DNA of 64,000 nucleotides from Kiritimatiellia bacterium (GTDB lineage: Bacteria; Verrucomicrobiota; Kiritimatiellia; UBA8416; JADHWI01). Location of the stretch: positions 1,705 to 65,704 of the forward strand of contig JADHWI010000004.1 in assembly GCA_016783565.1 (NCBI GenBank), in the 5' to 3' direction. The notes beneath the pieces were generated by a model that saw nothing but the letters and a program-made list of their open reading frames with translations, was not told the DNA's origin and made no database searches. The position numbers were made by a program, and so were the translations under genes. This document shows positions 17,431 through 17,979 of this stretch, one piece after another. Within the stretch, counting starts at the first letter, position 1, and each line of letters begins with the position of its first letter.

Positions 17431-17608
17431 GCACCCGTAGCTCAACCTGCCCGCAATGCTTCGCATAGCGATGCAGGCGGGTTGGATAGAGTAATTTTAA
17501 CCATATAATATAGAAATGTGCACCCGTAGCTCAACCTGCCCGCAATGCTTCGCATAGCGATGCAGGCGGGTTGGATAGAGTAATTTTAACCATATAATAT
17601 AGAAATGT
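17431..17608 (+). repeat. Two identical 89-bp tandem units: tRNA-Arg 5' fragment interrupted by a 36-bp palindrome, plus an AT-rich spacer
   Basis: Units at 17431-17519 and 17520-17608 read GCACCCGTAGCTCAA + CCTGCCCGCAATGCTTCGCATAGCGATGCAGGCGGG + TTGGATAGAGT + AATTTTAACCATATAATATAGAAATGT. Confidence 0.95.
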
Positions 17609-17685
17609 GCACCCGTAGCTCAATCGGATAGAGTGTCGCCCTCCGGAGGCGAAGGTTGTGGGTTCGAACCCCACCGGGTGTACCA
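17609..17685 (+). tRNA. tRNA-Arg (anticodon CCG)
   Basis: Acceptor stem GCACCCG/CGGGTGT; anticodon arm TCGCC-CT-CCG-GA-GGCGA; T-loop GGTTCGAAC; encoded CCA; 77 nt. Confidence 0.96.
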
Positions 17686-17691
17686 TTAAAG

Positions 17692-17979
17692 ATGGCAGAT
17701 CAGGTTCTCTTCCCTTCTTTCGCTTACACGTATGTTCTATTTCTTTCAAATGGTGAGTGGTACATTGGTTCTACCGATGATCTGCATCGCCGCCTGAAGC
17801 AACATAGAGAGAAGGCCGGTGGGCGCACGACCAGCATGCATGGCTTCGAGTTGGTCTATGCTGAAGCTTGTAGATCGCTTGCTGAAGCGCGCAAACGGGA
17901 GAAGCAGTTGAAAACGGGTTATGGTCGCGCCTACCTGAATCGACGACTCGCATTTGAACGCGACCTCCAGTCACTTTAA
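17692..17979 (+). CDS. Stand-alone GIY-YIG nuclease (UPF0213/Slx1-like, 95 aa)
   Basis: YTYVL...[16 protein letters not shown]...ELVYAE...[17 protein letters not shown] 6 nt after the tRNA CCA. Confidence 0.9.

Follow-up and report, generated by a model that had tools for sequence, protein, structure and literature searches.

A tRNA-linked GIY-YIG nuclease gene with split tRNA fragments and a dispersed hairpin in a Kiritimatiellia bacterium: a candidate minimal homing-type cassette

The window analysed here is a 64,000-nt stretch of contig JADHWI010000004.1 (positions 1,705 to 65,704, forward strand; assembly GCA_016783565.1) from a Kiritimatiellia bacterium represented by a 2.42-Mb metagenome-assembled genome (MAG) of 77 contigs and 85% completeness (G000; G, C and L numbers are our handles for genomes, contigs and loci). 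At 17431-17979, downstream of a serC-like gene, two tandem units built of a split tRNA-Arg fragment, a hairpin and a spacer precede an intact tRNA-Arg(CCG) gene and, directly behind it, the gene of a stand-alone GIY-YIG nuclease. This arrangement is considered here as a candidate selfish module. The features, all on the + strand, are as follows.

16284-17408, +: serC-like aminotransferase gene (Pfam Aminotran_5, E 7.8e-38), the conserved upstream neighbour that anchors the locus
17431-17445, +: unit 1, pseudo-tRNA-Arg(CCG) positions 1-15, identical to 17609-17623
17446-17481, +: unit 1, 36-nt hairpin in the D-loop of the pseudo-tRNA, member of a dispersed cross-phylum hairpin family
17482-17492, +: unit 1, pseudo-tRNA positions 16-26, one mismatch to the gene (C17 to T)
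17493-17519, +: unit 1, 27-nt AT-rich spacer, TATAAT at 17504-17509
17520-17608, +: unit 2, whole, 100% identical to unit 1
17520-17534, +: unit 2, pseudo-tRNA positions 1-15
17535-17570, +: unit 2, hairpin
17571-17581, +: unit 2, pseudo-tRNA positions 16-26
17582-17608, +: unit 2, spacer, TATAAT at 17593-17598
17609-17685, +: intact tRNA-Arg(CCG) gene (ARAGORN; Rfam tRNA 66.4 bits), third period of the array
17692-17979, +: gene of the 95-aa stand-alone GIY-YIG nuclease (Pfam PF01541), starting 6 nt past the tRNA CCA

The original prediction, made from the letters of the window, had described two identical 89-bp units, each with the first 26 nt of tRNA-Arg split by a 36-bp palindrome and followed by a 27-bp spacer, with the intact tRNA as the third in-phase period and the nuclease gene 6 nt after its CCA; this description is borne out in all its parts. 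Tandem Repeats Finder reports a period-89 repeat at 17430-17623 (2.2 copies, 100% matches, score 388), and a repeat search recovers the 89-nt copy twice (99-100%) and the 19-nt unit start three times, in phase, at spacings of 89 and 89. ARAGORN places a single tRNA in the window, tRNA-Arg(CCG) at 17609-17685, and finds no second gene for that isoacceptor in the 85%-complete genome. The hairpin-bearing unit folds with -27.6 kcal/mol (z -2.9; 2/200 shuffles fold as well), and hairpin and unit match no Rfam family at E up to 10 except tRNA itself. Given the 6-nt gap, from tRNA end to gene start, the nuclease gene is presumably co-transcribed with tRNA-Arg(CCG). A promoter role for the AT-rich spacer with its TATAAT would be a guess, and tandem promoters in the units are not claimed, the hand-read TTGGAT -35 scoring just 3 of 6.

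The reality of the array was checked in Logan contigs of public sequencing runs and in their unitigs with k-mer depth. The unitig across the unit-to-unit junction (17505-17548, comprising spacer, fragment start and hairpin start) is found without a single difference in runs X1, X2 and X5, and run X7 has it as 17505-17556. The four runs belong to four studies, and X1 and X2 possibly represent the source sample. As no such unitig would be possible otherwise, there are at least two units in tandem, and the assembly artefact that the original prediction had named as its own refutation is not what the runs contain. The k-mer depths of unit-internal unitigs (60 / 71.7 / 34.2), flanks (20 / 27.6 / 8-13) and junction (39 / 46.5 / 20.9) hint at about three units, one of which the assembly may have collapsed, contig depths not being copy numbers.

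The 95-aa protein is a member of the GIY-YIG superfamily by its Pfam match (E 7.4e-14; 52.2 bits with a cut-off of 22.6). Y14, Y24, G26, R34, H38, E58 and E70 are invariant in an alignment of 25 sequences that includes the window protein, and we take the invariant Tyr, Arg and Glu to be the catalytic residues, as in I-TevI and UvrC. The AlphaFold2 (AF2) model (pLDDT 86.8) has the element order strand-strand-helix-helix-strand-helices of the GIY-YIG fold. A profile search of the PDB returned 1zg2 (1.3e-10) and 1ywl (1.4e-8), both UPF0213, first, followed by SLX1 (4e-4) and T4 endonuclease II; Foldseek likewise matched the model best to 1zg2, 1ywl and Slx1 chains, branched-DNA-bound ones among them (TMq up to 0.63). 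The protein, a single domain, is hence nearer to UPF0213 and Slx1 than to homing endonucleases and UvrC. In the alignment of its clade (A1), the C-terminal Asn, that in 'YLNRRL', is not conserved, and the lack of a conserved Asn there is one of the marks by which PMC1564403, in the part available, sets off the Slx1-like branch. Because sequence and model both lie nearest to UPF0213 and Slx1, structure-directed cutting by the nuclease is suggested. The separate DNA-binding domain of free-standing homing endonucleases of the Seg type was not found, and NCBIfam and PHROGs gave weak homing-endonuclease-type matches only. PADLOC returned just one partial match of 14.9 bits, and thus no link to a known defence system.

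Strong evidence for a module comes from the nuclease homologues across bacteria. A profile from 25 close homologues was run against one genome per species, and the best 80 of 274 stretches were kept, from Verrucomicrobiota, Kiritimatiellota, Lentisphaerota, many Candidate Phyla Radiation (CPR) lineages, Gammaproteobacteria, Elusimicrobiota and others. A tRNA gene lies within 150 nt of the nuclease match in 70/80 loci, on the same strand in 70/70, upstream in 26 and downstream in 44, typically with just a few nt in between; tRNA density is 2.94 per kb near the nuclease gene as against 0.040 per kb in the outer flanks, a 74-fold difference. The tRNA partners vary, and they stand on either side of the gene. 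The adjacent tRNA has a partial copy in 45/70 loci; in 36/70, tRNA and copy have the nuclease gene between them and share the same orientation. These fragments are 5' or 3' parts of the tRNA, and they break off at scattered points in the D-arm, anticodon loop, variable region and T-stem. Three layouts recur. In the first, tRNA and nuclease gene are followed by a hairpin and a 3' fragment, which often begins at position 51; in the second, a 5' fragment and a hairpin precede nuclease gene and tRNA; in the third, that of the window and of its nearest homologues, L034 and L035, a hairpin-bearing 5' fragment and a spacer stand before tRNA and nuclease gene. Distant paralogues in 40 related genomes of the same order have a tRNA in 19/29 loci, several with flanking partial tRNA copies.

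The idea of a minimal mobile module of nuclease, tRNA copy and hairpin, as put forward in the original prediction, therefore stands in its tRNA adjacency (70/80), partial copies (36/70) and hairpin (39/80), and the enrichment of homologue flanks for tRNA genes, tRNA fragments and hairpins that it had called for is present in the 80 loci. What does not stand is tandem doubling as a trait of the module: the doubling is specific to this genome, and the conserved order, shared with L034, L035 and L006, is pseudo-tRNA, hairpin, spacer, tRNA and GIY-YIG gene.

Database homologues of the window protein carry the labels Verrucomicrobiota or Lentisphaerae, and its nearest relatives in the tree are from Kiritimatiellales and Lentisphaerae. 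Across phyla, nuclease clades correlate with the target tRNA: one clade is mostly at tRNA-Gly(CCC), located downstream, in CPR and gammaproteobacterial MAGs, and another mostly at tRNA-Val in bacteria of the Planctomycetes-Verrucomicrobia-Chlamydiae (PVC) group. The tree rests on an 80-column alignment that resolves few forks, and in it the tRNA label cannot be fully separated from host group. The window nuclease sits in the Val clade and yet at tRNA-Arg, which suggests a change of target. Two near-identical proteins (L077 and L078; branches 0.021 and 0.011), both at tRNA-Asn, occur in MAGs labelled Clostridia and Elusimicrobia, from either recent transfer or a binning error.

The hairpin is a family of its own. 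BLAST of the unit against the source genome found 11 further palindromes of 36-41 nt, seven on contig C18 and one each on C41, C63, C67 and C68, which brings the genome to 13 copies. By a degenerate pattern the hairpin occurs in 13/41 genomes of the order, with up to 21 copies per genome, and the reversed-pattern control gave 0 everywhere. It is thus a short, structured, dispersed palindrome of the repetitive extragenic palindromic (REP) type, and in this multi-copy character the REP-like side of the original prediction is upheld. Copies are near-identical within a genome and differ between genomes by compensatory changes. Across 50 different sequences, pairing reaches 88% in the outer stem, formed by columns 1-10 and 27-36. 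The inner stem 16-19/23-26 covaries (pair 16:26 as UA 21, AU 17, GC 4; pair 17:25 as UA 27, CG 20), as does an alternative inner stem 11-14/18-21 (pair 11:21 as AU 22, UA 15, GC 6), and the covariation score of the inner stems was reached by 0/500 shuffles. As the inner stems are mutually complementary, each DNA strand, or RNA of either orientation, can form its own hairpin.

With up to 4 mismatches allowed for membership, a hairpin lies within 200 nt of the nuclease gene in 39/80 loci (43 near and 2 far, 135-fold over the outer flanks); the broader CCYGCC...GGCRGG palindrome class is present in 40/80. In 21 loci the hairpin is within 6 nt of a tRNA fragment. The tRNA sequence resumes past the hairpin in the window and in L034, L035, L043, L066, L097 and L106, from which it follows that the hairpin was inserted in a pseudo-tRNA. 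Insertion points are the D-loop, the 26/27 junction or the anticodon loop, and the junctions examined have neither a target-site duplication nor a common target sequence. At one locus (L136; G002:C88, minus strand, ~450-560 and 1480-1590) a hairpin of one orientation lies inside the apical loop of another, the outer one splitting the D-loop of a pseudo-tRNA-Thr.

Within the source genome, a Pfam-level search found four small GIY-YIG genes, one 493-aa ORF (open reading frame) and two truncated remnants below the cut-off. The copy on C56 follows tRNA-Glu(CTC); that on C38 is set between 99-nt direct repeats, each with a tRNA 3' half and a hairpin. On C30 a remnant follows tRNA-Ala(GGC), upstream of which stand a 5' fragment (positions 1-26) and then a hairpin, and on C16, next to the real tRNA-Gly, a pseudo-tRNA-Gly interrupted by two hairpins has remnants on either side. 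Contig C36 (13900-14500) carries ~2.7 tandem 109-bp tRNA-like units in front of tRNA-Arg(ACG) (14232-14308) and a 3' partial copy after it; in these units a longer perfect hairpin replaces the anticodon arm.

These within-genome data bear on the plainest of explanations, in which ordinary slippage or unequal crossing-over duplicated the 5' tRNA piece together with the spacer upstream of it, an unrelated repeat came to sit inside and the nuclease gene is there by coincidence, or the assembly erred. Direct repeats of 15-19 nt would suffice for unequal crossing-over, and the C36 array has no GIY-YIG gene nearby. Against this stand the same layout grammar in dozens of loci from several phyla, the junction unitig in four runs from four studies, and the distribution of partial copies, which occur at 3/4 tRNAs adjoining a GIY-YIG gene and at 1/23 others (27 tRNAs; Fisher p 0.005, two 11-12-nt matches dropped and the two remnants below the Pfam cut-off included). 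We disfavour a purely local event and regard it as highly improbable.

The serC locus occurs both with and without the cassette. At 5/10 of the relatives' serC loci, serC is followed directly and on the same strand by tRNA-Arg(CCG), which is the ancestral synteny. The comparison that the original prediction had proposed for this site gave four empty alleles, with no nuclease gene, hairpin or fragment, and one occupied allele besides this genome. Presence in some alleles and absence in others is also a property of Seg-type genes. The occupied relative has a double-hairpin block of ~70 nt as a direct repeat on both sides of its GIY-YIG gene. In another family of the order, L006 has a hairpin remnant, then TTGGATAGAG, spacer, tRNA-Arg(CCG) and an N-terminally truncated GIY-YIG gene; TTGGATAGAG is the window's pseudo-tRNA 16-26 sequence, there too located after the hairpin, and L006 is a decayed copy of the window's module. 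Kin genomes have tandem units of nuclease gene plus fragment, threefold at G005:C17 and twofold at three other places. At G005:C17:700-1800 (L022, L145, L150, L155), tRNA-Thr(CGT) is followed by three GIY-YIG genes at a ~350-bp period, separated by an identical tRNA 3' fragment (positions 44-76), which looks like segmental amplification of the cassette.

Such a distribution would be unexpected of a host maintenance factor, for instance a structure-specific nuclease co-transcribed with highly transcribed tRNA genes, where it would resolve cruciforms, R-loops or forks that have stalled, fragments and hairpins being scars of this fragile site and no mark of mobility. That explanation could account for the strict co-orientation with the tRNA (70/70), the gaps of a few nt and the Slx1-like fold, and the available part of Dunin-Horkawicz et al. 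2006 (PMC1564403) regards the Slx1-like proteins of bacteria as repair enzymes passed on mostly by vertical descent. It is opposed by the patchy occurrence of the nuclease (25/41 genomes of the order), the empty serC-tRNA-Arg sites in four relatives, the variety of tRNA partners, which may precede or follow the gene, the decayed copies (L006, C16, C30), the tandem gene arrays in kin, and the near-identity of L077 and L078 in MAGs labelled as different phyla. We give a host role only a slim chance.

Based on the collective evidence, the locus is probably a copy of a widespread minimal selfish module, understood by analogy and from sequence as a homing-type, tRNA-linked nuclease cassette with a cognate hairpin. 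Its parts would be an intact tRNA gene, an abutting, co-oriented GIY-YIG gene of the Slx1/UPF0213 type, the 36-nt hairpin and a partial duplicate of the tRNA that is split by the hairpin or lies directly against it. To proceed, the proposed mechanism requires that the nuclease gene be expressed by read-through from the tRNA promoter and that the structure-specific enzyme break tRNA-gene or hairpin DNA. In recombinational repair, the tRNA and its partial copy would then serve as homology arms, so that the cassette is copied, homing-like, into cognate tRNA genes, which would survive the insertion. Since tRNA genes are conserved landing pads, spread across phyla is proposed. Recombination between full and partial tRNA copies would yield tandem arrays, as with phage SegB at tRNA genes, and the hairpin, as the cis element of the module, may also have spread alone as a REP-like repeat. 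In the window, the resident tRNA-Arg(CCG) downstream of serC would have acquired the cassette, and the 5' remnant with hairpin and spacer would then have been duplicated at least once; that the ends of the duplication coincide with tRNA ends is expected if tRNA sequence is the sole homology between donor and recipient. The inference of homing and amplification draws on the anatomy of the loci and on what the available part of PMC13096335 reports on phage SegB.

A number of findings weigh against this reading. The 95 aa comprise the catalytic domain alone, with no auxiliary or DNA-binding domain. The tRNA in the occupied allele is intact, which leaves a simple homing model without obvious self-immunity. 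The promoter scan gave no + strand sigma-70-type site in the units (weak -35), and no 3' tRNA-Arg fragment was found downstream of the window nuclease gene at E 0.05. The tRNA-Arg(ACG) fragment array on C36 has no GIY-YIG gene detected nearby. At loci of the distant GIY-YIG paralogues in the order, a hairpin is present in just 2/57. Solo hairpins prevail, 74/81 of the metagenome sites listed being without a nuclease within 300 nt and 22/23 kin-genome hairpin loci without a GIY-YIG gene. Genes of the Y1_Tnp family (PF01797) occur in 5/5 tested genomes that carry both GIY-YIG gene and hairpin, and a gene like a REP-associated tyrosine transposase (RAYT) lies 117-163 nt from a hairpin in G000 (C18, 117) and G036 (163), or 2/30 loci. 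The data are almost all from MAGs, and related genomes are not independent samples.

Regarding the enzyme that partners the hairpin, no ORF for a tyrosine or serine integrase, of the kind expected in an integrase-type tRNA island, lies near the locus. The original prediction had stated that no integrase or transposase is present, and this is correct for the neighbourhood; elsewhere in the genome, three RAYT-like Y1 (HUH) ORFs were recognised by Pfam Y1_Tnp matches and by motifs read by eye.

C18:1341-1901, -: RAYT-like Y1 (HUH) ORF
C61:12157-12798, +: RAYT-like Y1 (HUH) ORF
C42:2985-3701, +: RAYT-like Y1 (HUH) ORF

The locus could accordingly be the work of two unrelated parasites in one niche, a homing-type GIY-YIG nuclease at tRNA loci and a REP moved by a RAYT-like Y1 transposase, with the hairpin entering pseudo-tRNAs merely as neutral, hairpin-forming DNA. 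The three RAYT-like genes, the closeness of one to a hairpin here and of another in G036, the PF01797 genes in all five genomes and the predominance of solo hairpins agree with this, and the nested hairpins of L136 would fit stem-loop targeting in single-stranded DNA. The co-occurrence data point the other way. Among the 81 hairpin sites listed in the metagenome scan, an A1-like GIY-YIG gene lies within 300 nt in 7/81 and a RAYT-like gene within 1 kb in 0/81, by a RAYT profile built from 29 homologues of one order that may miss divergent RAYTs. In two small genomes, G042 and G045, the sole hairpin copy adjoins the GIY-tRNA locus and the Y1 genes are on other contigs. Within the order, the occurrence of the hairpin does not follow that of close RAYT homologues: G009 has hairpins and no match to the RAYT-like protein of C18; G019, G029 and G004 have close RAYT homologues and no hairpin. 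Nor is the arrangement that of a REP/RAYT system, a Y1 transposase gene flanked by its own REPs, for the gene flanked is that of the GIY-YIG nuclease, and the 135-fold enrichment is at GIY-YIG genes. Two separate parasites are thus considered rather unlikely. As further observations on hairpin sites, solo hairpins lie within 45 nt of a tRNA in 5/13 loci (three CPR genomes), hairpins lie within 100 nt of a tRNA in 6/81 metagenome sites listed, and the seven copies on C18 are located within larger mosaic repeats.

The homing-type cassette can be taken a step further, to a new class of prokaryotic mobile element, REP/RAYT-like on another nuclease fold, in which a Slx1-like GIY-YIG protein of ~90 aa works with its cognate 36-nt hairpin. 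Cloverleaf-forming tRNA genes would then be the cross-phylum landing pads, the hairpin would enter tRNA-gene loops, and the tRNA copy would be carried along or regenerated so that the host survives, the same breaks giving rise to tandem fragment arrays and solo hairpins. We hold this wider proposal, taken as a whole, tentatively and as something short of probable.

Of known systems, phage SegB is the closest in behaviour. At about twice the length of the window protein, it includes a C-terminal part for DNA binding, in contrast to the bare 95-aa catalytic domain seen here, which resembles Slx1/UPF0213, not homing endonucleases or UvrC. Hosts of the window-type nuclease are cellular chromosomes, with no relatives found in IMG/VR, where 49 pattern matches on viral contigs include 0 that encode one. 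Shared with SegB of T4/T6 are the GIY-YIG domain, the place of the gene among tRNA genes and the co-localisation with tRNAs across genomes; SegB itself cuts inside tRNA genes, promotes its own inheritance and drives recombination-dependent tandem amplification of tRNA and segB (PMC13096335, PMC2330249, both in the parts available). A conserved hairpin and a partial tRNA duplicate are found here, and those parts of the two papers report neither for SegB.

The likeness to REP/REPIN-RAYT systems lies in a short, imperfect, GC-rich palindrome with tens of dispersed copies, some of which flank a small nuclease gene. The linked gene is, however, GIY-YIG and not HUH/Y1, the copies beside such a gene go together with tRNA genes and split tRNA fragments, and the palindrome end is without the GTAG or CGTC tag described in the accessible text of PMC3733652. 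UPF0213 proteins (BH0048, EF2693) and Slx1 provide the best sequence and fold matches and share the minimal GIY-YIG domain, and what guides Slx1 in cutting branched and stem-loop DNA is structure, not sequence. Unlike the window protein, Slx1 needs Slx4 and has a RING domain, and for neither UPF0213 nor Slx1 does PMC1564403, in its available part, report tRNA linkage or mobility. Integrase islands, too, use tRNA genes as insertion sites and leave a partial tRNA copy as direct repeat with the gene intact; here there is no integrase, the element measures only about 0.3-0.5 kb, the fragments are 5' or 3', and their breakpoints are scattered.

No description of a bacterial module of GIY-YIG gene, tRNA and hairpin was found in the literature, in which subscription journals were thinly covered, and phage SegB is the sole precedent that turned up there; the module seems not to have been described before. 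If the proposal is true, it assigns a role to many unannotated small 'GIY-YIG nuclease family proteins', of which this clade gave 274 hits at one genome per species, and extends the SegB principle of nuclease-driven amplification at tRNA genes to bacterial chromosomes, tiny CPR genomes included. A REP-like repeat family would likewise gain a candidate enzyme that is not of the HUH type, and the frequent position of these genes and tRNAs at the ends of contigs assembled from metagenomes may find an explanation. With a nuclease of 95 aa and a cis element of 36 nt, the system would also be unusually small for studies of structure-directed DNA cleavage and recombination.

Some minor observations remain. 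Contig C19 (14600-14750) has 52-bp tandem repeats of two small hairpins directly downstream of tRNA-Met(CAT) (complement 14756-14832). C65:39340-39420 and C38:62680-62760 share TTGACAAGTTTGCCGTAGCTGCAACCTGCCCGCC followed by a GC-rich hairpin, which resembles a promoter, a tRNA-like piece and a hairpin. In the window, the neighbours of the locus are serC, a 147-aa ORF with no assignment and a FkbO/RidA-like gene. At 17280-17301 the serC-like gene contains a 9-bp tandem repeat (GGGCTTAAG, 2.4 copies), which is translated into a repeated GLK motif. Flanking the locus are very large ORFs of secreted type with Asp-rich repetitive motifs, at 9915-15413 (-, 1832 aa) and 19894-22140 (-, 748 aa).

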